A DNA stretch of 42,242 bases from a virus (IMGVR_UViG_2657245570_000016), one strand, 5' to 3'. Shown: positions 1 through 40,824, numbered from the stretch's first letter. Translations and numbers: made by a program. Notes: generated from the letters alone by a model not told the origin.

Positions 1-270
<270 letters not shown>

Positions 271-1874: not shown

Positions 1875-2071
1875 TACTGGCTGCGACATTTTTGAATAAA
1901 AGCGTCGATATTTCGGCGCTCATAACGAACTACTTTTGCACTGAAACGAATTGGTGCCAGGATAGCCCGATGACGATGCTTAATATTCCACTCACATAGC
2001 GTTTTCTGTGTAATACCTAACTTTTGGCATACTTCATCCGGGGTGAGTAAATCGTCGGGTTTCTCGCTCAT
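1871..2071 (-). CDS. AlpA-family helix-turn-helix regulator / excisionase
   Basis: 66-aa protein with an HTH-like segment (LLTPDEVCQKLGITQKTLCEW); position directly beside int; 4-nt overlap with the upstream helicase gene. Confidence 0.65.
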   Translation of the reverse strand: MSEKPDDLLTPDEVCQKLGITQKTLCEWNIKHRHRAILAPIRFSAKVVRYERRNIDAFIQKCRSQY

Positions 2072-3462
2072 GCTATACCTCTCTTTTTCATGGCATCGAG
2101 CAGGATGTCCTGCACTGTTCGTTTTGAGTTGCGCCGCTCCATCACCATTTCATCCATAGTGTCGGCAGCAATAATGTGGTGAATAAATACCGGACGATTG
2201 TGTCCGGCCTGTATCTGCCTGGTGGGGCCGATACGTTCAATAATTTGCTGATATTGCTCCAGGTCCCACCAGTGTGAGAAAAATACCAGTATATTTCCGC
2301 CGTCCTGCATGTTCAGGCCGTGGCCCGCGCTGGCTGGGTGTGCAAAGAGAACAGGAATCTTTCCGGAATTCCAGTCGCGCAGTGTCTGTGGATCCTGGTC
2401 GAGGTGACGACCGCGAGGGAATGCTTTAAGCAAGCGTTCAAGATCGTGTTTCCAGTGATAAGCAACCAGCACAGGTGCGCCAGCTGCTTCGGTCAGTATG
2501 CTGTCCAGCGCCTGTAGTTTGGTGTCATGCAGTTCTGACCAACTTCCGGTGTCATCTGTGTATACTGCGCCGCTGGCGATTTGCAGACACTTCAGTGTCT
2601 TTGCCGCGGCGTTCGGTGCTTCGATGCCTTCGCCATTCAGCTCGAGGAACATTTCCTTTTCCATTTCACGATACTGCTGACGGGCCTTCGGTGGCATATC
2701 CACGCGGATTACGTTATGGATGGGGTCTTTGATATCGAACCAGTCGGCCGCATCCAGCGAGAGGGTTACATCGGCTAACGCTCGCTGTATTTCACCCTGT
2801 GAGTGAGCAAAAGGCTCCAGTTTGGTCCAGCTCTGCCCCGGAAACTGTATCGAGTTGAACCAGCGTGAGGTAAACGCGCCGTAAGTGCGCCCGAGACGTT
2901 GCCCCTGGTCCACAAACCACGATTGTCCCCACAAATCTACCAGGCCGTTCGGTGCTGGCGTACCGGTGAGATTTATCCAGCGCCGGACATACTTATGCGC
3001 CACTTTGCCCAGCGCCGCCGCGCGCTTACCACCACCGCGCAGCCGGAAGGATTTTAGCCGGGTGCTTTCATCTGGAATGACAGTACCGAACGGCCATCGT
3101 TCTCCCAATTCTTCAATCAGCCAGACAAGGTTATCGTAGTTGATGGTGAACACGCTTGCGTTGCTGTTCGTCAGCGCCATAGAGCGCGCTTTGGCATTAC
3201 CAATAATTGGCTGCACCTCGATATTGCGCAAATGTCCCCACTTCAGTGCTTCATCCGGCCATGTGCTGGCAGCCACGCGCAGCGGCGCGAGGACCAGTGC
3301 GGGGCATGTTTCTGCCCCTGCCATAAAGAGATCTTCCAGCGCAGTGAGCGTTGCCACGGTTTTACCCATTCCCATCCCCGCCCAGATGTTGCCGCGCAGG
3401 GTTTCGGTTTCGTGGTTGATAATGAGAACTTGGTAGGGGCGAGGTATATATTTTGGGGGCAT
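2068..3462 (-). CDS. SNF2-family ATP-dependent helicase
   Basis: Motifs in the translation: Q-motif (PYQ), Walker A GMGMGKT, DExx-like VIPDESTRLK, motif III LTGTPAPN. Confidence 0.85.
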   Translation of the reverse strand: MPPKYIPRPYQVLIINHETETLRGNIWAGMGMGKTVATLTALEDLFMAGAETCPALVLAPLRVAASTWPDEALKWGHLRNIEVQPIIGNAKARSMALTNSNASVFTINYDNLVWLIEELGERWPFGTVIPDESTRLKSFRLRGGGKRAAALGKVAHKYVRRWINLTGTPAPNGLVDLWGQSWFVDQGQRLGRTYGAFTSRWFNSIQFPGQSWTKLEPFAHSQGEIQRALADVTLSLDAADWFDIKDPIHNVIRVDMPPKARQQYREMEKEMFLELNGEGIEAPNAAAKTLKCLQIASGAVYTDDTGSWSELHDTKLQALDSILTEAAGAPVLVAYHWKHDLERLLKAFPRGRHLDQDPQTLRDWNSGKIPVLFAHPASAGHGLNMQDGGNILVFFSHWWDLEQYQQIIERIGPTRQIQAGHNRPVFIHHIIAADTMDEMVMERRNSKRTVQDILLDAMKKRGIA

Positions 3463-4457: not shown

Positions 4458-4742
4458 CTATTGTAATTTTTTGCCTAATATACATGAAAGCTCCTTACTA
4501 TCCAGTACTACCACGGTAAAGCCCAGTTTTCGCAGACGTTCATGCTCGCGCAACTGATCAGGTCGTGGTGGTTTGCCTGGTGCTTTGCATTCGACAAAGA
4601 CGATGCGACCGCCGGGTAGCAGAACAATGCGATCTGGTACCGAGCGGAGACCGGGAGATACGAACTTAAAGGCAACCCCGCCAGCCTTTTTTACTTCAGC
4701 GACGAGGTGCTTTTCGATTAGGTTTTCACGTTCATAGGCCAT
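4458..4742 (-). CDS. VRR-NUC domain nuclease (PD-(D/E)XK fold)
   Basis: VPDRIVLLPGGRIVFVECKAPGKPPRPDQL contains the PD...E-C-K catalytic arrangement of VRR-NUC proteins; commonly found beside SNF2 helicases in phages. Confidence 0.8.
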   Translation of the reverse strand: MAYERENLIEKHLVAEVKKAGGVAFKFVSPGLRSVPDRIVLLPGGRIVFVECKAPGKPPRPDQLREHERLRKLGFTVVVLDSKELSCILGKKLQ

Positions 4743-4936
4743 TAGCTTTCGCCTTCCTGCTTTTTGCGTTTCTTCATGCAGATAGCGCAGTTCTCAGGAT
4801 GGTCATGCCATTCGTCAATCCTGATACCTGTGAACATCCATTTTCCGCATAGTGATATGGCTTCCCCCGAATTAAAGAAATGTGCTTTTTTCGACAGGGC
4901 GGGGAACCCCCAACCTTTATTATCGATATTAGACAT
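4742..4936 (-). CDS. Small putative zinc-binding phage protein
   Basis: 64 aa with C-x12-H-x-H-x5-C-x2-C spacing (LCGKW...WHDHPENCAIC) and a basic tail; its stop overlaps the VRR-NUC start (TAATG on the minus strand). Confidence 0.45.
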   Translation of the reverse strand: MSNIDNKGWGFPALSKKAHFFNSGEAISLCGKWMFTGIRIDEWHDHPENCAICMKKRKKQEGES

Positions 4937-5120
4937 CGTCCACCTCCTTACGCTTTTCGCGCATGTTCTGCATCAGACAAAAATCAAACCGACGTTCGCT
5001 TTGGCCCAGACCTGCATCGCCCGGTCGTACCCGCTGGACTGTTCAAGGCGCAAAGCCTCCCGTGCAGTCCGGTAATAAAGCGGACTGTCCCGGTATTTAA
5101 ATGACATAGGGTTTTTATTC

Positions 5121-5171: not shown

Positions 5172-5933
5172 TTACGAGGAAGCGTTAGCTATTTGAGCTT
5201 GTGTAAATTCGAAACCAGAATTTTGTAACCGTTGCACTAGACGAGGAACTGTTTCACGTACATGGTCGTTGAAATTCAGATACAAAATCCCGTTAGCATC
5301 AGAAGGCTGTTCTAGGTGCTGTTTCTGAAGGATTGCTACATTGCTGCGCCCTAAGGACGAAAGAAGCATACCCATCTCGAGTACAACGTTCTGTCTTGCG
5401 CGGGGTTGGATTTCTGCTTCACCGGCGCGCTTTGAGTATCCCATATCATCAGGTGTCAAAAGAACAATCCCGAAACGAGTAGCAGTTTGTCCTTGCCCAA
5501 TTTCACGTTCAAGCTCTTCAATAATGGTGAGTCCAGTCCCTCCCGTATTCTGCAAAATGAAATGGTCTGGTAATCCAAGTTTATGAAGGATTAGCTCAAG
5601 TTGTTCCTTTGCAGTATGGTCATGGCCGTGAACAATGAATATCTTTTTGGGAAGCTCAGATGGCTGTTCTACGGCTAGTGGTGTTGCCGTGGGGGGCGTT
5701 CCTAAATGGGACATTATTGCAGTTTCAACATTGGGACGTTCTTGAGGGTTCCCTTGAAACTGAATGGTCCGGGTGGTGTAAAGGTTAACAATTACGCCAT
5801 TCGTTAAACGATAGCAGTCATAAGTCTCACGCTGTTCGTGGGAAAAATTGGTGAACCCACACTCCCTCAAAAAGTCAGGAAAAGATTCTCTCGGGTATGG
5901 ATAGTTGATCGGCATTTCAGTTAGTTCCTGCAT
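5172..5933 (-). CDS. Hypothetical protein: N-terminal domain of unknown function (about 90 aa) plus C-terminal TIR-like domain (Cap12/PycTIR-type predicted nucleotide-binding fold)
   Basis: C-terminal KKIFIVHGHDH...FGIVLLTPDD...RARQNVVLEMGMLLSSLGRSNVAILQK...PSDANGILYL matches my recollection of the TIR-like consensus (FIvHG ... TPDD ... RaRqNVvfElG ... pSD..G..y). GC content looks lower than the flanking pol gene. AAAGGA Shine-Dalgarno before the ATG. Confidence 0.55.
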   Translation of the reverse strand: MQELTEMPINYPYPRESFPDFLRECGFTNFSHEQRETYDCYRLTNGVIVNLYTTRTIQFQGNPQERPNVETAIMSHLGTPPTATPLAVEQPSELPKKIFIVHGHDHTAKEQLELILHKLGLPDHFILQNTGGTGLTIIEELEREIGQGQTATRFGIVLLTPDDMGYSKRAGEAEIQPRARQNVVLEMGMLLSSLGRSNVAILQKQHLEQPSDANGILYLNFNDHVRETVPRLVQRLQNSGFEFTQAQIANASS

Positions 5934-5997: not shown

Positions 5998-8061
5998 TCA
6001 ATCTTTTTTGTAGTGGTACGCCTCAAAGCCGCCAGCGTTCAGCGGAATATCGGGTGCCCATTCGGGGTTAGTGGAGAGAAGCGCGGAAAGCGCTTTATCG
6101 TTGAAATCTTCTGTGTCTGGTGCTTCGGTGATCACCTCGTCGTGTACCGTTAGCACAATGCTGTAACCGGCACCCTCGATCAGCGGCATGTTTCTGGCTA
6201 GAACGTCGCGGGCGGCCGCCTGGGTGACGTTCTCCACCAGCTTTCCGCCGTAGGTTTTGAGTCGTTGCCATTTACGCGAATAAGAGTTAACACCCATGTA
6301 GGTGATATTCCCTTGTTCGATAACCGGAGACGGGTAGCATACAGCGCGTCCGGATGGTAGCTGTATGCGCAGCCACGCGCCATCACGTCGGATTTTAAGA
6401 TAGCCGCAATACAATGTTTTTTGCGGTGTGGCGATTGCTGTGCGGACAGTGCGCTCCAGCTCGTACCAGAAATCGCAGGTCGCCGGGTGCGCCCTGCGCC
6501 ACAGGCGCTTGAGCGAGTCACATGCGATGAATACACGCTCGGACAGGCCAAAGGTCGACTTACGCTTAACCGATTCGTCGTACCAGCTTTTTGCCTCGCG
6601 GATAACATCGCGGGGAATGTTTGGCAGTGCGGCGTTCGCCAGCTCGTCGAGATCGAGACCGTAAACCAGAGCAAAAGTGATGAAAGCCGATACACCACCT
6701 CCATAACCCAGACCGAGTTCCATGACTTTACCGATCTGACGCATGTGTTTATCAACATCATCTGGTGCAATATCGAAAGCTTTTGCATACGCCAGTTTAT
6801 ATAAGTCCGGACCCGTTCCAGCGTCATACTCTCTGAATGCATTCAGTTTCCATTCTTCTCCCGCCAGCCATGCCAGCATACGGCCTTCAATGTTTGACAA
6901 GTCACTTACCACTAGTTTTTTGCCTGTTGGCGCGATAATGCAGCCACGTAACGCTGAACTGGTTAGTTCCATGATATTGTCAAACAGCAGGTCTGCACAT
7001 CCGGCTTTCAGTGCTTCGATGCCTTCGTCTATTTGTTCCTGTTTTAGTGAAGGGCGGGGAAGGTTCTGGGGCTGGAATAGCCGTCCGGCCCAACGACCGG
7101 TACGTGACGCCCCGCAGAACTGTAGCGTACCGCGTAAGCGCCCGTCGTGGCTTACGCCTTTCATCAGTGCCTTGTATTTACTGGTGCTGGTAGTACTGGC
7201 TTGCAGGCGGATAGCCAGCAGTTCTTTCACGGCAGATGATAAATCGGGGTCGGCCATACGACGTTCCAGGGTACTGCGTTGCATGTCTGGTAGCTCCACA
7301 CCGTAGGATTCAACGATGTGCTTAATCAACGCGTCCCGTTGTGTGGCTGCCTGCACTTCGCCATCAGTCATTTCCTGTGTACGCTTTGCCAGGCGCTTTT
7401 GCTCCTGGTCTACCGCTTCGATCGCAGCGCGCGCGAGTTGCATGTCCATGCAGACGCCCCGGTCGTTGATCTGCTGATCACGATGCCAGAGCGCCAGCTC
7501 TGTCCCCTGATAATTCCACTTCGGCAGACGTTTATAGACTTCACGCATTGCTTCGATATCCAGTCCGGCGTAAGCAACAAAGCGCCGCCATTCTTCCGGA
7601 TGGGTTTTACTGGTGGCCCGACGCAGTTTGCTGTTTTTCGGACGTGGCTTACAGAACAGCTGGATCAGCGCTTTACCTTCTTTGTCCTTCGCTTTGTCTT
7701 GCGGGACGCCTAGTACTTCGCAGAGTTCCCCCAGAGACCCCGGGAGACCGTGCGCCAGCGCCTGCACCATCGTGTCGCGCCAACGTTCGACTGGCGGTGC
7801 CAGTCGCGGCATTGCATAACGCAGAACGGTGCGGTCGAAGTGAGAGTTATGGAAATAAAGCAGGGTTTCAGGGTCTGCGATTGCTTCGTATAAGCCGTGT
7901 GGAATACCACCACCGGCAGTGATATCCCACACGTTTACTGGCCCGTCGTTGATAGCCCATGCGAAAAGCATCACTTCAACGCCTTCGGCATACGCATGGG
8001 TACCGTTCGTAATAGGGATTTCGCAATAGGTTTCCAGGTCGCCCCATAGTATATTGGACAT
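5998..8061 (-). CDS. Family A (Pol I-like) DNA polymerase with N-terminal 3'-5' exonuclease domain
   Basis: 687 aa; N-terminal exonuclease motif (GDLETY) then a long polymerase region; a typical partner of DUF2800/DUF2815/VRR-NUC/SNF2 replication modules. Confidence 0.8.
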
Positions 8062-28225: not shown

Positions 28226-29371
28226 ATGGCACAGGGCTTGCCTGTATCAAACGTTGTTAATGTTGATGTGATCATGTCGCCGCGTGCAGCATCAGGGCGA
28301 AATTTTGGTGCATTACTCATTCTCGGCCCGTCCACAATCATTCCGGTAAGTGAGCGCATTCGCCGTTATTCTGCCGCGGAAGATATTGGAAAAGATTTTG
28401 GCGTGGAATCACCAGAATATAAAGCTGCGCAGGTGTTTTTCTCACAATCACCGAAACCTCAGGAGGTTTTTGTTGGTCGTTGGGTGAAAACGAAGGGAGA
28501 CAGCGAACAGGCCACGCCTGAGACGCTGGAGCAGGCTGTGAATGCCATGCTTGATTATACTTCATGGTATGGGCTGGGGATTGCAGACGATGCAGATATT
28601 CCGGATGCAGACTGGCTGAAAGTGGCTGCGGCGATCGAATCCTCTTCTGTAAGCCGTATTCTGGCGATTACGACAAGCGATGAGAAATGCCTGCAGACTG
28701 CATCCAGAGATGATTTGGCATCAAAACTGAAAAGCGCCGGATATTCACGCAGTTTTATACAATATTCATCGGGTAATAAATTCGCTGCGTTATCTGCATT
28801 TGGCCGGGCATTCACGGTTAATTTCAATGGCAGTAATACCGCGATTACGCTCAAGTTTAAGCAGGAGCCGGGTGTCGGGTATGAAACACTGACAGTCAGC
28901 CAGGCATCGGCACTTGATGCAAAAAACTGCAATGTGTTCGTGTACTACCAGAATGATACAGCTATCCTCCAGCAGGGAGTGATGGCTAACGGCGATTTCT
29001 TTGATGAACGCCACGGCCTGGACTGGTTACAGAATTATGTGCAGACCAACCTCTATAACCTGCTTTATACCAGCACCACGAAGGTTCCCCAGACTGAAGC
29101 CGGTATTACCCGACTGTTATCAAATGTTGAAAAATCACTGGATCAGGCCGTTCAGAATGGACTGATTGCTCCGGGCGTATGGAACGGTGGCGACCTTGGC
29201 CAGTTGTCATCAGGTGACACGCTGCCCAAAGGTTATTACGTATACGCCCAGCCGCTGGATGAACAGGCACAATCAGAACGTGAAGCCCGTAAGGCTCCGG
29301 TGATTCAGGCTGCAATAAAACTTGCAGGCGCGGTTCATTACGCTGACGTACAGATTAACGTTGTTCGCTAA
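28226..29371 (+). CDS. Tail sheath protein (DUF3383-like)
   Basis: 381 aa directly upstream of the tube, chaperone and tape measure genes. Confidence 0.6.
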
Positions 29372-29381
29372 GGGGAAGTGA

Positions 29382-29822
29382 ATGTCTACCTATTCTTTTA
29401 TGGATGTCACTGCGACGCTGACCGGGCCGACCGGTTCGATTGACCTCGGGTACGGTTCGGCAAGTTCTGAAGAGGGGATTGTGGTTGCGATGGGCGGTCC
29501 TAAAAACACCATGACCATCGGTGCTGATGGTGAAGTGATGCACAGCCTCCATGCAGATAAAAGCGGGACGATTACCGTTAACCTTCTGAAGACATCACCG
29601 ACAAATAAAAAATTGTCGCTGGCGTATAACGCACAGAGCCAGTCTTCTGCCACATGGGGGAATAACGTTATCGTTATCCGCAACAAGGTCAGCGGCGACA
29701 TCATCACGGCACGCAGTGTTGCGTTCCAGAAACAACCGGATAACGCCAACGCTAAAACCGGTAATACGATGCCGTGGGTGTTTGACTGCGGCAAGATTGA
29801 CCAGGTTCTCGGGGAGTTTTAA
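29382..29822 (+). CDS. Tail tube protein
   Basis: 146 aa between sheath and chaperone genes. Confidence 0.55.
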   Translation: MSTYSFMDVTATLTGPTGSIDLGYGSASSEEGIVVAMGGPKNTMTIGADGEVMHSLHADKSGTITVNLLKTSPTNKKLSLAYNAQSQSSATWGNNVIVIRNKVSGDIITARSVAFQKQPDNANAKTGNTMPWVFDCGKIDQVLGEF

Positions 29823-29825
29823 TGC

Positions 29826-30278
29826 ATGGAATTCGAAATTAAAGGCGTGAAATATCGCACGGCAAAACTCAGCGTTTTTGACCAGCTGAAAGTGACCCGC
29901 AAACTTCTGCCGGTGCTGGCAGGAATGATGTCAGATTTCGGGAGTATTCGCTCCCGTTTGCCTGCTGACGGCAAAATCGACACCGTGAAATTCGAACAGT
30001 TAAAACCGGTGTTTGAAACCATGCTCCCGCGTATCGCTGAGGAACTGTCTTCCCTGACCGAAGATGACACCGATGCGATTATTCATCCCTGTCTTGCGGT
30101 GGTATCGCGGCGTCATATGGACGGATGGGTGCCGGTATTTACCCAGGGCGAACTGATGTTTGATGATATTGACTTGCTGGTCATGCTGCAGCTGGTGGCG
30201 CGGGTGGTCGCCGATTCGCTGGGAAATTTTTTGCCTACACCCCTTACCAGCACGACGCAGAGCCTGCAACAGGGCTGA
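29826..30278 (+). CDS. Tail assembly chaperone (G-like)
   Basis: 150 aa just upstream of the tape measure; contains a TTTTTTG slippery heptamer near its 3' end with an open -1 frame extending to the tape measure start. Confidence 0.55.
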   Translation: MEFEIKGVKYRTAKLSVFDQLKVTRKLLPVLAGMMSDFGSIRSRLPADGKIDTVKFEQLKPVFETMLPRIAEELSSLTEDDTDAIIHPCLAVVSRRHMDGWVPVFTQGELMFDDIDLLVMLQLVARVVADSLGNFLPTPLTSTTQSLQQG

Positions 30279-30466
30279 CGTTTAACAGCCTGCCGGACGG
30301 GCTGTCCTACCTTCTCAATCCGGTTGACGCCGGGTTAATTCCTTATACAGCACTTAAAGATGGCTCTGTCGATTTGTATGACATTGCTCTCTTGAATGAC
30401 CATCTGGCGGTAAAAGCGGATAACCAGCGACGCATTGAGAAATGGAGAGAGGATAATGAACGCTGA
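30227..30466 (+). CDS. Predicted -1 frameshift extension of the tail assembly chaperone (GT-like product)
   Basis: Heptamer T TTT TTG at 30227-30233 in the zero frame; the -1 frame is open for 79 codons to a TGA at 30464-30466 (checked codon by codon). Confidence 0.45.
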   Translation, partial: FFAYTPYQHDAEPATGLTFNSLPDGLSYLLNPVDAGLIPYTALKDGSVDLYDIALLNDHLAVKADNQRRIEKWREDNER

Positions 30467-32441
30467 AACTATTAAAGATTTCCTCGTCTCGCTTGGCTTC
30501 CGTGTGGATGATGCAGGAGCGAAAAAGTTCGGTTCTGTCCTCGCCGGTACAACTGCAAATGTCATCAAAATGGGGCTGGCTGTTGAAGGGGCTGCGCTGT
30601 CCGTGGTGGCCTTCACGGCTAAGATCGCCTCCGGCCTGGATAATCTTTACTGGGCGTCACAGCGCACCGGCGCGACGGTCCAGGGAATTCAGTCTATTGG
30701 CTATGCGGTTTCGCAGGTTGGCGGCAGTGTGGACGCTGCGCGATCTTCTCTGGAAAGCCTCTCCCGGTTTATTCGTAACAATCCCGGAGCAGAAGGCTTT
30801 CTGAATCGCCTGGGCGTACAGACCCGTGATGCCAGCGGTAACATGCGTGACATGGCTGCTATCTTTACGGGCGTTGGACAGAAACTCAGCAGCATGCCGT
30901 ATTACCGGGCTAACCAGTATGCGCAGATGCTGGGCATTGACGAAAATACCCTGATGGCTATGCGTCGCGGAGTGGGGCAGTTCAGCGCTCAGTATTCAGA
31001 AATGGTGAAAGCGATCGGATTTAATGCCGATCAGGCTGCCTTATCGTCAAACCGGTTTATGACCTCGCTGAAATCGCTCGGTGAAATGGCCAGGATGGCG
31101 CGGGACAAAATCGGATCGAATCTTGCGGACGGACTGGCGGGGCAGATTGATAACCTGCGCAAAAAGATAATTGAAAATTTTCCCAAAATTGAAGTCACCA
31201 TCACAAAGGTCATAAAGGGGATCCTCTGGCTGGGTGAGATAGTCGGGCGGGTAGCATTTCGGATAGTCGATGGTGTCGGAGATATCATCGAGTGGTGGGG
31301 GAAACTGGATGCCGAAACGAAAACCCTGATAGAGGTTATCGGCGGTCTGGTTGTCGCCATGCGGATACTTAACTCTACTTTCTGGATGTCACCTATAGGG
31401 CTGATTACCGGTCTGATCGTGGCTCTCGGTCTCTTGTGGGAAGACTACAAAACATGGAAAGAAGGCGGTAACAGTCTTATCGACTGGGAAAAATGGCAAC
31501 CGGCAATAGATAAAGCGAAGGATGCGATCACCTGGCTTCGTGATCACCTTCTGGAACTAAAAGATGGTGTTGGCGGCTGGCAAAATGCACTGGAAATCCT
31601 TGGTACATTCATCGCGGGTGTCTGGGTATCCAGGGTTCTGGGGGCTTTCGGGAAAATATCAGGTTTGCCGGTCCCGCCGTGGTTAAAAGGCTGGATGGCT
31701 TATGCTGCGTATTTGTACTCTGATCGCGAAAATATTGGTGCCAGTGCGAAGTCATCCTGGGATTACACGAAACAAAATATTGGAGATTCATTGCGCTGGC
31801 TTGGCATTGATACCGATTTTGGTCGTAATCCTCATACCGTAAAAGGCGCAAATATTCAGTCAGATATTCCAGGTGCTGAGCCGGAACAATATGCACAGGC
31901 TACGAAACGAGGAGAACGGAATAACAATCCGGGAAACCTTAATTTTGCTGGTCAGGCAGGGGCTTCTCTTGAACGCCCGGGCGGGCGATTTGCCAGATTT
32001 GAAACTGCCTTTGATGGATTACGGGCTCTTGCTCGTCAGTTAATGCTGTACGCCGGACGGGGAATAAACAGTGTGGAGAAAATTATCTCTACCTGGGCAC
32101 CTGCGTCTGATAATAACAACACAACAGCGTATATCAGGGCTGTATCGCAACGACTGGGAGTGGATCCCCGGGCTGCCCTGAATATGAGCGATCCGCAAAC
32201 CATGTCAGCATTGATGAGCAGCATTATCCAGCATGAGAATGGAAGAAATATCTATTCTCGAGAGCTGATTAATAAGGCTGCCGTGGCGGGAATTAGTGGC
32301 AAAGTGACAGAGGTTAACCAGCAAAATACCTACCACATTTACGGTGGCGGAGATCCGCACGCTGTCGGTAATGAGGTTGCACGTCGGCAACAGTCTGCAA
32401 ATGCTCAGGTCATGCGAAGTAATCAGGTGAGGGTGGGTTAG
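30456..32441 (+). CDS. Tail tape measure protein
   Basis: Long alpha-helical, partly hydrophobic protein after the chaperone. ATG at 30456 has a GGAGAGAGG Shine-Dalgarno; the ORF-track start at 30435 is a TTG. Confidence 0.7.
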   Translation: MNAETIKDFLVSLGFRVDDAGAKKFGSVLAGTTANVIKMGLAVEGAALSVVAFTAKIASGLDNLYWASQRTGATVQGIQSIGYAVSQVGGSVDAARSSLESLSRFIRNNPGAEGFLNRLGVQTRDASGNMRDMAAIFTGVGQKLSSMPYYRANQYAQMLGIDENTLMAMRRGVGQFSAQYSEMVKAIGFNADQAALSSNRFMTSLKSLGEMARMARDKIGSNLADGLAGQIDNLRKKIIENFPKIEVTITKVIKGILWLGEIVGRVAFRIVDGVGDIIEWWGKLDAETKTLIEVIGGLVVAMRILNSTFWMSPIGLITGLIVALGLLWEDYKTWKEGGNSLIDWEKWQPAIDKAKDAITWLRDHLLELKDGVGGWQNALEILGTFIAGVWVSRVLGAFGKISGLPVPPWLKGWMAYAAYLYSDRENIGASAKSSWDYTKQNIGDSLRWLGIDTDFGRNPHTVKGANIQSDIPGAEPEQYAQATKRGERNNNPGNLNFAGQAGASLERPGGRFARFETAFDGLRALARQLMLYAGRGINSVEKIISTWAPASDNNNTTAYIRAVSQRLGVDPRAALNMSDPQTMSALMSSIIQHENGRNIYSRELINKAAVAGISGKVTEVNQQNTYHIYGGGDPHAVGNEVARRQQSANAQVMRSNQVRVG

Positions 32442-33028
32442 TGGATATTCTCTCTACACTTTTTCATCAGCAGAGCAGAAAAATAGGAATGATTGTTCCC
32501 AGTGTTGTTATTTCAGAGAAGCATACAGATATGCTTGAAATAACAGAGCATCCGGTAGAGGTCGGGGCCGCTGTCGCTGATCATGCCTATAAAAAACCGT
32601 CAGAAGTGGTGATGGAGGTTGGTTTCGCCGGTGGCGGCGCATTGCTGGATTTTGCCAGTAACCTGACGGCTACCAGCCTGCTCGGCCTGAGTCCTCAGCA
32701 GACGTATCAGGAGCTACTGGGTCTGCAGGAAAGCCGTATCCCCTTCGATGTGGTAACCGGTAAACGGCTGTACAGCAACATGTTGATCCGGGCGCTGGAA
32801 GTGACGACGGACAAGACAACCGAAAACGTCCTGTCCGCCGTCCTCACCCTGAGGGAGGTCATTATCTCCCGGACACAGCAGATTACCGTCGCGGATAAAA
32901 CCAACATGAAGGAAGGGGCCAGCACGTCGGCGGTACAGAACAGCGGCAACAAAACCACAAAGCCTCCAGATACTTCACTGCTGAAAAGCATCACGGGTAA
33001 CGTGGCGTCATTACTGGGGGGCGGCTAA
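32441..33028 (+). CDS. Tail/baseplate protein
   Basis: 195 aa, coupled ORF after the tape measure. Confidence 0.4.
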   Translation: MDILSTLFHQQSRKIGMIVPSVVISEKHTDMLEITEHPVEVGAAVADHAYKKPSEVVMEVGFAGGGALLDFASNLTATSLLGLSPQQTYQELLGLQESRIPFDVVTGKRLYSNMLIRALEVTTDKTTENVLSAVLTLREVIISRTQQITVADKTNMKEGASTSAVQNSGNKTTKPPDTSLLKSITGNVASLLGGG

Positions 33029-33330
33029 TGACAATTCAGGAAATTCCGCTGACAGCGGACAACCAGCAGTTCAGCATCGTCCTGGGTGGTGTCACCTGGC
33101 GGATTAGCATCATATGGCGCGATCTGTACTGGATTATGGACCTGCAGAACGACAGAGGGGAGCCGGTAATCTCCGGTATTCCTCTCGTCACTGGTGCTGA
33201 CCTGCTGGCGCAGTACGCCTGTATGGGGCTTGGTTTTAAGCTGGTGGTGGTCTGTGATGACAACACACAGGATTACCCCACAAAAACTGACCTGGGCGGT
33301 CGCAGCCATTTACTGGTATCAACGGAGTAA
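33028..33330 (+). CDS. Tail/baseplate protein
   Basis: 100 aa, coupled ORF. Confidence 0.4.
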   Translation: MTIQEIPLTADNQQFSIVLGGVTWRISIIWRDLYWIMDLQNDRGEPVISGIPLVTGADLLAQYACMGLGFKLVVVCDDNTQDYPTKTDLGGRSHLLVSTE

Positions 33331-33332
33331 GC

Positions 33333-34397
33333 ATGTCACAGAACTGGATGAGACATTTCGAGCTGCAGCTTGTGGACGGGAACGGTCAGGGAATTGAGCT
33401 AAGTGATTTCAAAGTCACCTTTACGATCGACTGGTTCAACATCAGCAGCGCGTCCCGGGTAGGGACTATCAAAATTTATAACCTCTCGGCAGATACTGTG
33501 AACCGAATTACCGGGCAGGAGTTTTCGAAAGTGCGTCTGATTGCCGGTTACGACGGTATCGCGCCGGAGGTGTCAGCAAGCGACGTAGGGACCGTGCGGG
33601 AAGTTGACGCGGCGGACGTGGGCCAGAGAGATGGCCGCAACTACGGACTGATTTTCAGCGGTGAAATTCGCTACTCGGTCACAGGAAAAGACAGTCCGGT
33701 TGATACCTACGTCCTGATTCAGGCAGCAGATACTGATCTGGCTTTTGCTACCAGTATAACCTCACAGACGCTGGCTGCCGGTTACACGGTCGCTGATGTG
33801 AACCGTGCGCTGATGAAAGACTTCGAAGCCAAAGGCGCGACCGAAGGCCTGACGCCTGAAATGCCTGCTACTGTATTCCCCCGGGGGCGGGTACTCTTTG
33901 GCATGACGCGGCATCTAATGGATAACGTAGCCGGACAATGTGGCGCAACATGGCAATTCGTGGACGGTCAGCGCCAGATGGTGGTGAATAACGAATATGT
34001 TCACGAAGCGATTGTGCTCAACAGCGCTACCGGGCTTATTGGAATGCCGCAGCAGACTATCGGTAACGGCGTAAACGTCCGCGCGCTTATTAATCCGAAC
34101 ATCCGGGTTAACGGGCTCATTCAGCTGGATCAGGCTTCCGTCTATCGTACCGCGTTGTCGAACAACGATATTGCGATGGCTGGTGGTCAGATCACCGACC
34201 AGAACACGGACGGAAATATCACGCTCAGCGGCACCACATCGCAGCCTGCCAGCATCGCAACGGATGGCGTTTATATTGTGCGCGGGATTATGTACACTGG
34301 CGACACAAGGGGCCAGGCGTGGTACATGGATATGATGTGTGAAGCGCGTGGCGCGGCGGATCTTGTTTCCTCATCAGCGAGGGAAAGAGGGCTTTAA
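33333..34397 (+). CDS. Putative baseplate hub / late control D-like protein
   Basis: 354 aa between tape measure-proximal genes and the spike gene. Confidence 0.4.
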   Translation: MSQNWMRHFELQLVDGNGQGIELSDFKVTFTIDWFNISSASRVGTIKIYNLSADTVNRITGQEFSKVRLIAGYDGIAPEVSASDVGTVREVDAADVGQRDGRNYGLIFSGEIRYSVTGKDSPVDTYVLIQAADTDLAFATSITSQTLAAGYTVADVNRALMKDFEAKGATEGLTPEMPATVFPRGRVLFGMTRHLMDNVAGQCGATWQFVDGQRQMVVNNEYVHEAIVLNSATGLIGMPQQTIGNGVNVRALINPNIRVNGLIQLDQASVYRTALSNNDIAMAGGQITDQNTDGNITLSGTTSQPASIATDGVYIVRGIMYTGDTRGQAWYMDMMCEARGAADLVSSSARERGL

Positions 34398-34732
34398 TGA
34401 AACGGTTATGTTTGGCGTTAGTTATGATGGTTACTGCTCCGGCGATGGCTGCAATTCAGTGCGGCAACTACACGATGACCGGTGACGGAATGACTGTTAT
34501 TAACGGTGAAACTGTCACATCACAGAAGATAAAATTTCTGGGAAAAGATGGTGACTATTCAAACATGAAAATGGACATGGGCCTGATGCCTTCCCGTGAT
34601 GGTAACAATTACGGCTTTGAGTTTGTGAAACGTAACGGAAAAGCTTTCCTGAACGTCCAGCTGCTGCAGAACAGCATGGACGCGCCGAAAATCATTGGAT
34701 CTTTCCCGTGTAAAAAAGTGAGCAGCAAGTGA
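34397..34732 (+). CDS. Secreted small protein (signal peptide), moron-like
   Basis: N-terminal signal peptide MKRLCLALVMMVTAPAMA|A; lower GC than flanking tail genes; TAATG overlap with the upstream gene. Confidence 0.5.
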   Translation: MKRLCLALVMMVTAPAMAAIQCGNYTMTGDGMTVINGETVTSQKIKFLGKDGDYSNMKMDMGLMPSRDGNNYGFEFVKRNGKAFLNVQLLQNSMDAPKIIGSFPCKKVSSK

Positions 34733-35241
34733 CAGTTGATGATGATCCTTTGAATTCATTTCAAGACCCTGACTTTCAGGAACTTCTCGGCGGAATTGAT
34801 ATTACTCTTGTTATAAGGTTTTTTAATTATTTTTCGCGTTTCGAATATGCGTTAAAAAGAATTAATTTCAAAAAAACTGATCGTAGAAATTATCTAATCG
34901 GTGCTGACTGGAGCCGCTACGCTACTGATGATACGCGGCCTTTATATCCTACTGGAAATAGAAATGTCGATAGGGCAGTTGAGTATCTATGTCAGCAACC
35001 TGTGAAGCAGCAGAGGCATGATTTTTCGTGGGAGGATAAACCTCCAATCGAACCTCATTCTCTTGCTGAAGCATTAAAGCAGATCCCGTATATAAGAAAT
35101 AATCTCTTTCACGGCGGGAAGTATTTACGTCCCGCCCCCGTTCGTGATGAAAAGTTATTGAAATACTCTATTTATTTGATGCAGTTGTGTTTGATAACTG
35201 ATAATCAGCTTTCTGAATACTTTAATACTATCCACCGATAG
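34729..35241 (+). CDS. Hypothetical AT-rich protein with an Rx4H (HEPN-like) motif, moron-like
   Basis: Strongly AT-rich; GTG start overlapping the previous stop; contains IRNNLFHGGKY; followed by a terminator. Confidence 0.45.
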   Translation: MTVDDDPLNSFQDPDFQELLGGIDITLVIRFFNYFSRFEYALKRINFKKTDRRNYLIGADWSRYATDDTRPLYPTGNRNVDRAVEYLCQQPVKQQRHDFSWEDKPPIEPHSLAEALKQIPYIRNNLFHGGKYLRPAPVRDEKLLKYSIYLMQLCLITDNQLSEYFNTIHR

Positions 35242-38980: not shown

Positions 38981-39421
38981 ATGCAGAAATATATTTTCAG
39001 TGCCGATAAAAATGCGTTTTTCCCTGTGGAGCTTAAAATCGCTTATCAGGAATCCGGCGAATGGCCCGATGATGGAATCGAAATTGACGACACTGTTGCT
39101 GCCGAATTTATGAAGGAAGCACCAGAAGGAAAATACAGAGGTGTCATCGACGGAATGCCTGCATGGATTGATATTCCACCGCCAACTCATGAGGAACAAA
39201 TTGCCGCAGCCGAACTGAAAAAGCAGCAATTGATTAATCAGGTCAACGAATACATAAACAGTAAGCAATGGCCTGGTAAAGCGGCGATTGGTCGCCTGAA
39301 AGGTGAGGAACTGGTGCAATATAATTTGTGGCTGGATTATCTGGACGCACTGGAACTGGTCGATACTTCCGGTGCGCCAGATATTGAATGGCCTACGCCT
39401 CCGGCAGTTCAGGCCAGATGA
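38981..39421 (+). CDS. Tail fibre assembly protein (Tfa/U-like)
   Basis: 146 aa; conserved C-terminal ELVDTSGAPDIEWPTPP, mirrored by the opposite-strand paralogue (DTSTAPDVIWPELP). Confidence 0.7.
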   Translation: MQKYIFSADKNAFFPVELKIAYQESGEWPDDGIEIDDTVAAEFMKEAPEGKYRGVIDGMPAWIDIPPPTHEEQIAAAELKKQQLINQVNEYINSKQWPGKAAIGRLKGEELVQYNLWLDYLDALELVDTSGAPDIEWPTPPAVQAR

Positions 39422-39989
39422 CATCCGGCGCGGTGCTGGTATCTGTTGCCGTCACCGCGTCAATGTAATCCAGCACAGCGTTAAGCCGGGTTGTTTCTGC
39501 CTGCGTCAGTTTCCGCCCGGCTTGTAATTTCAGCTGAATCAGACTAATGGAAGCCATTGCTGCATCAATCAGTGACTGGCGCTGTGCTTCTGACGCGTCT
39601 ACTGCGGCGCTATGCTGTGCCTCGGTATCCGTCACCCATTTCTCACCATCCCATTTATCGTATGGCATTAACGGTGAAAGCGTGACATAACCATCTTTGA
39701 TGGCACCGATATAATCCACTGTAACAGCTGCGCCATTTTCGATTGAGTAAACAGTCTCATTGCGATGGTCCTCTTCATGGCTCCATCCCTTACCTGTAAA
39801 TACAGCCACTTTTCCCGGAATGTTTTCGCCAGGGTTAATTCCAGTGGAACAGGCGGGCATACTTACGCCAGTATTAATATATTCATCAGACCAGCCCGTA
39901 TACTCAGATGTTTCAGCATCATAATAAAAACAACGCATATCGCCCGGCACTGTAGCCAGTCCATTTTCATCAAAAATTGGGGTCATCAT
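39393..39989 (-). CDS. Alternative tail fibre assembly protein (Tfa') inside the invertible segment
   Basis: 198 aa on the opposite strand with a Tfa-like C-terminus; convergent and overlapping with tfa. Confidence 0.65.
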   Translation of the reverse strand: MMTPIFDENGLATVPGDMRCFYYDAETSEYTGWSDEYINTGVSMPACSTGINPGENIPGKVAVFTGKGWSHEEDHRNETVYSIENGAAVTVDYIGAIKDGYVTLSPLMPYDKWDGEKWVTDTEAQHSAAVDASEAQRQSLIDAAMASISLIQLKLQAGRKLTQAETTRLNAVLDYIDAVTATDTSTAPDVIWPELPEA

Positions 39990-40441
39990 TTAGCCCTCAC
40001 CAGAAAGTTAAATGCAATATTTCGCGGTCTGACGGCAACAAAATTCACACCATCACCCACAGAGTTACTGGTGAAATTAAATCGTGAAAATCCTGGCTGA
40101 TTTCCGGCGATACCATCATGAAAATTAATTGTGTGGCCCGCACCATCGCCTATATTCCCGGCAAACTGAGAAAAGTTTGTAGCTGCCTGCCAGCTTAATA
40201 ATTCGCGACCACCGTCTGCACCTCGCCCGTCATCCCAGATACGAATGAAATCACCGCGGGCTTCAGGTAATACCAGCGAAGGAAACACTTTCGCCAGCAC
40301 AGGGTAATCAGAGGCAGAAAATTTCGCCCCGTTAAACTTCAAAAACACCATACCGGACCAGCTGTCGATGACAGAATTTGGCATTGCAGCGGACGGCCAG
40401 AAGAACGGAACGCCAATAGCTGGGGCACCTTCTCCCAAACC
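39986..40441 (-). CDS. Alternative tail fibre C-terminal segment (Sv'-like; promoterless, expressed only after inversion)
   Basis: Open frame on the minus strand starting at the right inversion site; encodes a Gly-rich fibre-like C-terminus; no plausible own start. The ORF-track Met at 40483 lies outside the invertible segment. Confidence 0.55.
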   Translation of the reverse strand, partial: GLGEGAPAIGVPFFWPSAAMPNSVIDSWSGMVFLKFNGAKFSASDYPVLAKVFPSLVLPEARGDFIRIWDDGRGADGGRELLSWQAATNFSQFAGNIGDGAGHTINFHDGIAGNQPGFSRFNFTSNSVGDGVNFVAVRPRNIAFNFLVRAK

Positions 40442-40452
40442 AACGTTTATGA
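40429..40452. repeat. Invertase recombination site, right (hix/gix-like)
   Basis: CTTCTCCCAAACCAACGTTTATGA is the inverted copy of 38611-38634; lies 57 bp upstream of the invertase start. Confidence 0.6.
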
Positions 40453-40509
40453 AAATGCAGAAATAACGAGCAAATGGCATCATTCCTGCTTTTGTCAGAG
40501 GGATCCACT

Positions 40510-40824
40510 ATGCTTATTGGCTATGTACGTGTGTCAACAAATGACCAGAACACAGATCTACAACGTAATGCGCTGAACTGTGCAGGATGCGAGCTGTTTT
40601 TTGAAGACAAGATAAGCGGTACAAAGTCCGAAAGGCCGGGACTGAAAAAACTGCTCAGGACATTATCGGCAGGTGACACTCTGGTTGTCTGGAAGCTGGA
40701 TCGGCTGGGGCGCAGTGTGCGGCATCTTGTCGTGCTGGTGGAGGAGTTGTGCGAACAAGGTGTTAATTTTAGTAGTTATGTTATTACAGGTGGGGGATTT
40801 CTCCCCCTTATGCAGATTTTCTAG
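40510..40824 (+). pseudogene. Serine DNA invertase (Hin/Gin/Pin/Cin family), truncated after about 96 codons
   Basis: MLIGYVRVSTNDQNTDLQRNAL...DTLVVWKLDRLGRSV closely matches the Pin/Hin N-terminal catalytic domain; after EQGVNF the sequence diverges (SSYVITGGGFLPLMQIF*) into AT-rich DNA. Typical family members are about 185-190 aa. Confidence 0.75.
40787..40802. other. GC hairpin at the junction between the truncated invertase and AT-rich DNA
   Basis: GGGGGA-TTTC-TCCCCC perfect 6-bp stem, about 27 nt downstream of the stop of the minus-strand 281-aa gene. Confidence 0.4.

Follow-up and report, generated by a model that had tools for sequence, protein, structure and literature searches.

A tail assembly chaperone and a DUF6889 extension in an Escherichia coli prophage, predicted to be joined by programmed −1 ribosomal frameshifting

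Introduction

The closest described systems come from phages lambda and P2. For the G/GT pair of lambda, domain roles and a 30:1 ratio of the two products have been demonstrated (Levin et al. 1993; Xu et al. 2004, 2013, 2014; as described in PMC5009743). In P2, translation of E/E+E′ shifts into the −1 frame on TTTTTTG (Christie et al. 2002, as described in PMC3091744 and PMC3931495); in those descriptions, E′ runs into the start of the tape measure gene, is not preceded by a ribosome binding site and is not followed by a hairpin. A conserved GTTTTT slip motif has also been argued for the TAC-N/TAC-NC products of Pakpunavirus (Vandenendeviridae) and Andersonviridae myoviruses (PMC12846349). A spiral-forming tail assembly chaperone fold is represented by HK97 gp13 (2OB9) and YqbN (3KLU) in the work of Pell et al. 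2013, as cited in PMC9603447.

Here we analyse a tail assembly chaperone locus in a viral DNA sequence (IMGVR_UViG_2657245570_000016); ‘the window’ refers to this whole stretch of 42,242 nucleotides. Sequence comparison indicates that the long form of the chaperone is very probably made by programmed −1 ribosomal frameshifting of the lambda G/GT and P2 E/E+E′ kind. A first-pass annotation had proposed this G/GT arrangement, and the position of the gene, the domain in the extension, its frame, its missing start codon and the constraint on the slip site are all as that proposal predicted. Our literature search found no publications on the PF21822/DUF6889 family.

Results

A putative chaperone gene between the tube and tape measure genes

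Comparison with RefSeq places the window in an E. coli prophage adjoining yfhL; no tRNA gene was found anywhere in the whole window. By Pfam, the tail module is of the DUF3383-sheath/KPP10-tube type with an E217-type baseplate. Its genes run in the order sheath, tube, chaperone and tape measure, with two overlapping frames between the tube and tape measure genes. The relevant features are:

1-261, minus strand: yfhL, neighbour of the integrated prophage
477-1874: tyrosine integrase gene, at the prophage end next to yfhL
28226-29371: sheath gene, DUF3383 / E217 gp31-like
29382..29822, plus strand: tail tube gene, 146 aa, Pfam PF11681 (KPP10_Orf10/Phage_Tube_PhiTE), E 9e-61
29826..30278, plus strand: predicted tail assembly chaperone, short zero-frame product (TAC-N), 150 aa, PF21822, phrog_1688
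29826..30466, plus strand: predicted frameshift product, 213 aa, joined across the slip
30221..30233, plus strand: slippery tract G GGA AAT TTT TTG (GGGAAATTTTTTG as a tract), three overlapping X XXY YYZ heptamers
30230..30466, plus strand: −1 frame extension, 78 codons plus TGA, DUF6889, predicted C-terminal domain of the long product
30302..30466, plus strand: RefSeq stand-alone ‘DUF6889 family protein’, 54 aa, first codon CTG
30456..32441, plus strand: tape measure protein gene, 661 aa, phrog_2276 ‘tail length tape measure protein’, E 3e-265

RefSeq names the tube gene (29382..29822) ‘DUF3277 family protein’ and gives the tape measure gene the same start as ours, the ATG at 30456, which is preceded by GGAGAGAGG. 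The open reading frame at 29826-30278 matches Pfam PF21822 (Phage_TAC_15; E 3e-30, 105.8 bits, gathering cut-off 22) and phrog_1688 ‘tail assembly chaperone’ (E 4e-65), matches that identify its predicted product as the tail assembly chaperone. A sequence search of the PDB returned no match or relative for the chaperone–extension product, NCBIfam contained no matching model, and an AlphaFold2 model of the 213-aa fusion (mean pLDDT 40.3) was too poor for a fold search.

Several other parts of the prophage have features of their own. Between the baseplate hub and the spike gene lie two ORFs, 34397-34732 (111 aa) and 34729-35241 (170 aa), which have no Pfam match and hit only unknown-function PHROGs (phrog_3443 and phrog_19013); the N-terminus of the 111-aa product, MKRLCLALVMMVTAPAMA, resembles a signal peptide. 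These may be cargo genes within the tail module. In the early region, RefSeq annotates a TIR domain-containing protein (5172-5933, minus strand) among genes for a DNA polymerase (5998-8061), a VRR-NUC protein (4458-4742) and an SNF2-related protein (2068-3462), and the TIR gene may act in defence or counter-defence. An ANR family transcriptional regulator in the same region (4929-5107, minus strand) is a frameshifted pseudogene according to RefSeq. Two convergent tail fibre assembly genes (39077-39670, plus strand; 39642-40082, minus strand) are followed by a gp53-like fragment on the minus strand and a truncated recombinase pseudogene (40510-40776); the segment from 39077 to 40776 looks like a Gin/Cin-type invertible tail-fibre segment in which the invertase is broken.

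The slippery tract and the −1 open frame

Near its 3′ end, the chaperone gene reads CTG GGA AAT TTT TTG CCT (L G N F L P). The heptamer T TTT TTG at 30227-30233 lies in the X XXY YYZ register of the chaperone frame and is overlapped by two others, G GGA AAT (30221) and A AAT TTT (30224), the first of which resembles the lambda slippery sequence, G GGA AAG. The zero-frame stop is the TGA at 30276-30278, 45 nt from the last base of T TTT TTG to the last base of the stop codon. Counted from 30227, the −1 frame contains 79 sense codons and ends at a TGA at 30464-30466; it has been open since 30173, for a total of 97 codons. Its stop lies 11 nt beyond the tape measure ATG, and the extension (30230..30466) covers both the last 16 codons of the chaperone gene and the first 11 nt of the tape measure gene. 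The positional claims of the first-pass annotation, namely an in-frame T TTT TTG, its 45-nt distance from the chaperone stop, a 79-codon open −1 frame and a −1 stop just past the tape measure start, agree with these coordinates.

The tract allows two joins, each of which would yield a 213-aa product. Slippage on A AAT TTT corresponds to join(29826..30230,30230..30466) and reads ...GNFFAYT..., whereas slippage on T TTT TTG corresponds to join(29826..30233,30233..30466) and reads ...GNFLAYT.... The predicted junction peptide of the fusion is SLGNFFAYTPYQ or SLGNFLAYTPYQ, and would contain SLGNFFAYTPYQHD if the shift occurs on A AAU UUU or G GGA AAU and SLGNFLAYTPYQHD if it occurs on U UUU UUG.

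Long −1 frames are rare in the surrounding genes. Across 29 morphogenesis ORFs, −1 open runs (n = 569) have a median length of 8 codons, a 95th percentile of 33 and a maximum of 76, and the 97-codon chaperone run exceeds chance expectation. Among 28 in-frame X XXY YYZ heptamers, reading beyond the stop is possible only from the three in the chaperone gene and from one other. This other heptamer, G GGG GGC at 33016-33022, is in frame two codons short of the stop of a Dit-like baseplate gene (32441-33028), where the −1 frame is that of the next gene, encoding the baseplate plug (33028-33330). The 33016 heptamer is probably a coincidence because the plug gene has its own ATG, which overlaps the stop.

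Evidence that the extension encodes a protein domain

The −1 extension matches Pfam DUF6889 (PF21829; E 9e-20, 70.6 bits, cut-off 23.9) and phrog_4364 (E 1e-22). For the part of the extension past the chaperone stop in 55 distinct sequences, median dN/dS was 0.165 in the −1 frame, compared to 1.69 and 1.49 in the other two frames, both of which carry stops in every sequence (55/55). Mean pairwise differences at −1 frame codon positions 1, 2 and 3 were 0.28, 0.24 and 0.55, respectively, in the same 55 sequences. By these measures, the extension is a protein-coding domain under purifying selection.

Signals for independent expression of this domain are scarce. In the window, the −1 frame lacks both a start codon and a ribosome binding site: it contains no ATG or GTG, just two late TTGs that lack a Shine-Dalgarno sequence, and no promoter-like site was found for the extension. 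An ATG, GTG or TTG precedes the conserved LPDG block in only 6 of the 55 sequences, and the commonest internal ATG corresponds to the Met/Leu position of a conserved FL(M/L)RPV motif. Conservation of the −1 peptide, FFARTP(Y/R)QRD, starts at the T-run itself; the zero-frame tail past the T-run is variable, 12–18 residues long and rich in Pro, Thr, Ser and Glu.

Conservation of the frame relation

Searches by tblastn with the chaperone and, separately, with the extension returned the same 40 phage records, from hosts including Escherichia, Yersinia, Salmonella, Klebsiella, Citrobacter, Hafnia, Providencia, Edwardsiella, Acinetobacter, Burkholderia, Bordetella, Ralstonia and others. In all 40, the chaperone match ends at residue 134–135 and the extension starts a few bases later with an offset of 2 mod 3, which corresponds to the −1 frame (40/40). 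A species-level scan with one genome per species added 55 loci, 54 of them complete enough to score, and in 51 of these 54 prophage loci the extension is again in the −1 frame; in the three exceptions, either the chaperone gene is broken or the extension contains an indel. The first-pass annotation had named a −1 frame not conserved in relatives as an outcome that would count against frameshifting, and the outcome across both sets was the opposite. The IMG/VR scan recovered only near-identical copies (94–100% identity), which are of little use for substitution analysis.

Individual loci deviate in various ways. Only 47 or 23 codons of the chaperone gene are left in Apirhabdus and in an Arsenophonus endosymbiont. 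An indel shifts the extension of Enterobacter sp. R1, an Arsenophonus MAG has a truncated extension, and in Izhakiella australiensis the stop of the extension has been lost, so that the frame continues for 273 codons. In a variant from Logan SRR23924998 (L157 985-1030), the equivalent of 30221-30233 contains T7 in place of T6, and the complete 213-aa fusion is encoded in one frame, ...GNFFAYT... (protein cluster of 16 sequences). Either a sequencing error in the homopolymer or a true mutation that leaves only the long form could explain this variant; error or mutant alike, its conceptual translation shows that the two predicted halves join cleanly at the tract.

Constraint on the slip site

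Codon choice at the tract is far more uniform than elsewhere in the gene. Across the 66 sequences compared, Phe135 is encoded by TTT in 65/65 cases, Asn134 by AAT in 51/51, and the codon ahead of Phe135 (for N, G, S, D or P) ends in T in 65/65. Control Phe columns in the same gene contain 25 TTT versus 33 TTC and 27 versus 36. When only the 54 enterobacterial sequences are considered, the codons are AAT in 47/47, TTT in 54/54 and TTG in 47/47 where the residue occurs. The exclusive use of TTG for Leu136 (47/47) is found even though CTG dominates other Leu positions. At conserved residues in this enterobacterial set, the share of the top codon is typically 0.45–0.75, whereas it is 0.85, 1.0, 1.0 and 1.0 for Gly133, Asn134, Phe135 and Leu136, respectively. 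Judged by this synonymous constraint, the slip site is under selection.

Stop codons narrow the position of the frame change. Four lineages carry a −1-frame stop whose last base is one base or one codon upstream of the T-run, in the contexts GGT AGT TTT, GGT AAT TTT and GGT GAT TTT and, in Providencia, TAG CAG TTT; Acinetobacter A785.1 has a TAA just upstream of TTTGGGAAATTTT. Because these stops abut the T-run, the frame change must occur on the tract. Taken at the level of the aligned loci, a −1 frame change at 30221-30233 links the two parts of an encoded chaperone–DUF6889 fusion.

Stimulatory elements

A downstream stimulatory RNA structure, which the first-pass annotation had suggested looking for, is neither present in the window nor conserved in the 55 relatives. 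The 100 nt downstream of the tract (30234-30333) fold no better than shuffled sequences (z −0.67). For the first 45 nt downstream in the 55 relatives, the mean z was +0.32, with a single sequence below −2, and RNAalifold gave an essentially empty consensus with zero covariation. Rfam contained no family matching anywhere in the window. On the basis of the z-scores, RNAalifold and Rfam, we rule out a downstream stimulator. An upstream Shine-Dalgarno-like stimulator is likewise not supported. No such element is conserved, synonymous conservation is elevated only at codons 133–136, and the GGGTGG that lies 16–19 nt upstream of the slip site is weak and beyond the useful spacing for a stimulator.

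With no downstream structure and no upstream element, the efficiency of frameshifting may therefore be low. Lack of a stimulatory structure refutes nothing. It agrees with phage P2 and its relatives, which are without a hairpin in the description given in PMC3091744.

Discussion

Comparison with known frameshifting chaperones

The locus has overlapping frames between the tube and tape measure genes, a −1 frame, an in-register slippery sequence and a conserved arrangement, and these attributes place it, as a predicted and unannotated member, in the class of standard tail-chaperone frameshifts of Xu et al. 2004. As in lambda, the gene lies between the tail tube/shaft and tape measure genes, and a −1 shift near its 3′ end would produce a minor long form that shares its N-terminus with the short form. 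By contrast, the lambda tail is non-contractile, the domain roles and the 30:1 ratio have been demonstrated for lambda only, and a Pfam scan at E values up to 10 detected no sequence similarity to lambda proteins.

The resemblance to P2, as that phage is described in the sources cited above, extends to a contractile-tailed temperate enterobacterial phage, the same T6G heptamer, an extension that reaches past the tape measure start and is without a ribosome binding site, and no downstream hairpin. The differences are also clear. The products are 150 and 213 aa here compared to 91 and 142 aa in the P2 descriptions, the tail module is of the DUF3383-sheath/KPP10-tube type rather than the FI/FII type of P2, and two additional heptamers overlap T6G in the prophage tract. 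Moreover, Pfam models of the P2 E family do not match, and the Pfam scan at E up to 10 returned PF21822 and PF21829 only. The chaperone locus is predicted to act like P2 E/E+E′, yet is no sequence member of that family.

Pakpunavirus and Andersonviridae share with the prophage the same tail families, a KPP10-type tube and an E217-type baseplate, a conserved −1 open frame and a downstream ORF that is routinely called ‘hypothetical protein’, and their short poly-T motif, GTTTTT, is comparable to the NNT TTT that is universal here. They differ in being virulent Pseudomonas and enterobacterial phages, and none is among the 40 records matched by the chaperone in the tblastn search of the phage collection. 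Their case, like the present one, rests on comparative evidence. Two homologues that match in both chaperone and extension are Klebsiella phage Mulock (CPT_Mulock_014/015; 60% identity to the chaperone) and Burkholderia phage Magia (gp15/gp16; about 42% identity), for which GenBank gives a joined CDS named ‘tape measure chaperone frameshift product’. These joined CDSs were predicted by a curator, and the Mulock genome paper makes no reference to a frameshift. Magia differs in having C CCT TTT ATC instead of a T6 run.

A model for synthesis and function of the two products

In the model that we favor, most ribosomes would halt at 30278 and release the 150-aa chaperone, whereas a minority would slip back one base on the 30221-30233 tract. 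The slip would take place while tRNA-Phe occupies the A site on UUU (A AAU UUU) or at the codon after that (U UUU UUG). These shifted ribosomes would read 77–78 more codons to the TGA at 30464-30466 and produce a 213-aa protein with an N-terminal chaperone domain and a C-terminal DUF6889 domain. By analogy with lambda (PMC5009743), the short form and the N-domain of the long form would coat the tape measure protein, and the rare C-domain would recruit the tail tube protein, allowing the tube to polymerise around the tape measure. The proportion of short to long form would presumably matter, and neither product would stay in the virion. The roles assigned to the two domains, tape measure binding and tube recruitment, are thus borrowed from lambda and would apply here by inference.

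Alternative explanations

Could the extension be expressed without ribosomal frameshifting? A separate small gene with its own start, as in the RefSeq annotation at 30302-30466, would leave the chaperone in its 150-aa form only. RefSeq and several GenBank records do annotate stand-alone proteins of 43–78 aa, and an ATG occurs within the extension (alignment column 31) in 25 of the 55 relatives, preceded in 16 of these by a Shine-Dalgarno-like sequence. However, the annotated start in the window is a CTG, its frame offers no ATG or GTG, and the two TTGs, neither of which has a Shine-Dalgarno sequence, come once most of the conserved domain has passed. The Met in column 31 alternates with Leu as a plain residue of the FL(M/L)RPV motif, and the peptide is conserved upstream of every candidate start, back to the T-run. 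The fixed frame relation to the chaperone seen in all relatives would not be required of an independent gene, and the slip site is under synonymous constraint; we regard this explanation as highly improbable. Even less credible, at a negligible probability, is an open −1 frame that is a product of chance or a decaying remnant from which nothing is made. This frame is the longest of the 569 −1 open runs in prophage morphogenesis genes, matches a Pfam domain and is conserved from Enterobacterales to Acinetobacter, Burkholderia, Bordetella and Ralstonia. Its dN/dS of 0.165 excludes the chance or decay reading, which conservation in relatives also refutes.

Transcriptional slippage would reach the same protein by another route: RNA polymerase would add a U on the T6 run, and in some of the mRNAs chaperone and extension would share a single frame. 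In favor of this route, the run is homopolymeric, with T6 here and T7 in some relatives; AAAAAAA and UUUUUUU runs have been discussed as sources of transcript indels (PMC4066793); and a non-frameshift mechanism has been proposed for T4-like chaperones, according to the title of Vladimirov et al. 2022 as cited in PMC12846349. Nevertheless, the motifs present are canonical ribosomal heptamers, and what is conserved is the codon register, namely T TTT with a preceding codon that ends in T, rather than the length of the run. In addition, four T's suffice in distant relatives (NNT TTT ATT; Acinetobacter, Burkholderia and a Pseudomonadota MAG), too short a run for efficient slippage by the polymerase. 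Because these four-T relatives keep the arrangement and the codon register is conserved, transcriptional slippage is very unlikely, its small residual probability being confined to the T6/T7 lineages, and programmed −1 ribosomal frameshifting is the reading that we carry forward.

Which codon slips

The first-pass annotation had singled out T TTT TTG as the slip site. This heptamer is present and P2-like, but A AAT TTT, three nucleotides upstream, fits at least equally well. Every enterobacterial locus with an intact chaperone gene contains T TTT TT(G/T/C), and in some of these loci the T-run is the sole canonical heptamer (GGC GGT TTT TTG and GGT GAT TTT TTG). Outside Enterobacterales, the next codon is ATT, ATC or ATG, and NNT TTT alone is kept. 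Distant relatives have A AAT TTT in Acinetobacter and C CCT TTT in Burkholderia, non-canonical forms elsewhere (G CCT TTT, T TCT TTT and G GAT TTT), and G GGA AAT only in Bordetella IFTN9. The tetramer T TTT with Phe in the A site is common to 65 of the 66 sequences, and, because heptamers are not kept in distant relatives, it is this tetramer that constitutes the shared element.

Reporter data from E. coli are relevant to this choice. Motifs of the H_HH.U_UU.Y type, including A AAU UUU and C CCU UUU, are among the most efficient, and the tetramer U_UU.U ranks well above U_UU.G (PMC4066793). In the same study, U UUU UUG is listed as efficient for eukaryotes only and not for E. coli, and the U_UUG tetramer gives only 1.8–3.6 fold over background (PMC4066793). 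Since only T TTT is kept in distant relatives, A AAT TTT should be an equally good or better candidate, and by this comparative reasoning we consider A AAT TTT (30224) at least as likely a shift site as T TTT TTG. Both slip positions may contribute in the window. We tentatively propose, as a reading that falls just short of probable, that the true site is the Phe codon, where tRNA-Phe would re-pair from UUU to the overlapping UUU (A AAU UUU here; bare U_UUU in distant relatives), and that the three-heptamer tract of Enterobacterales is an extended slippery run that provides useful efficiency without an RNA stimulator. If the Phe codon is the site, then the product would read ...GNFFAYT..., not ...GNFLAYT....

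Annotation and broader implications

The first-pass expectation that pipelines omit the fusion is borne out by existing records. In the RefSeq records covered, which include a genome identical to the window, the joined product is replaced by the 54-aa, CTG-start CDS at 30302..30466, best read as an annotation artefact that covers part of the extension, and four identical phage records (vB_EcoM-606R2 and relatives) label the extension fragment ‘hypothetical protein’. In databases, the domain appears as stand-alone proteins of 43–78 aa called ‘DUF6889 family protein’ or ‘NTP pyrophosphohydrolase’; the latter name is carried by fragments of 43–73 aa in NCBI nr and by two Klebsiella phage records, and looks like a propagated label to which the sequences lend no support. 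The prophage type itself is common, with matches in 368 of the 5,426 complete E. coli genomes searched, 309 of which cover 80% or more of a 1.3-kb query, and is also present in many other Enterobacterales.

The main value of these results is therefore in annotation hygiene, namely the treatment of DUF6889 in RefSeq, Pfam and nr. Recognition of DUF6889 as the C-terminal domain of the long chaperone form would provide a function for this domain and a reason to merge Pfam/NCBI entries. The scientific interest is small and centers on the question of tetramer versus heptamer; knowledge of phage tail assembly is unchanged. For that question, the locus is a clean natural test case, as tetramer, heptamer and tandem-heptamer sites occur in homologous contexts without stimulatory RNA. 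If slippage does occur on the Phe codon, then a tetramer without any stimulator would serve as a functional recoding signal that has been conserved in several bacterial orders.
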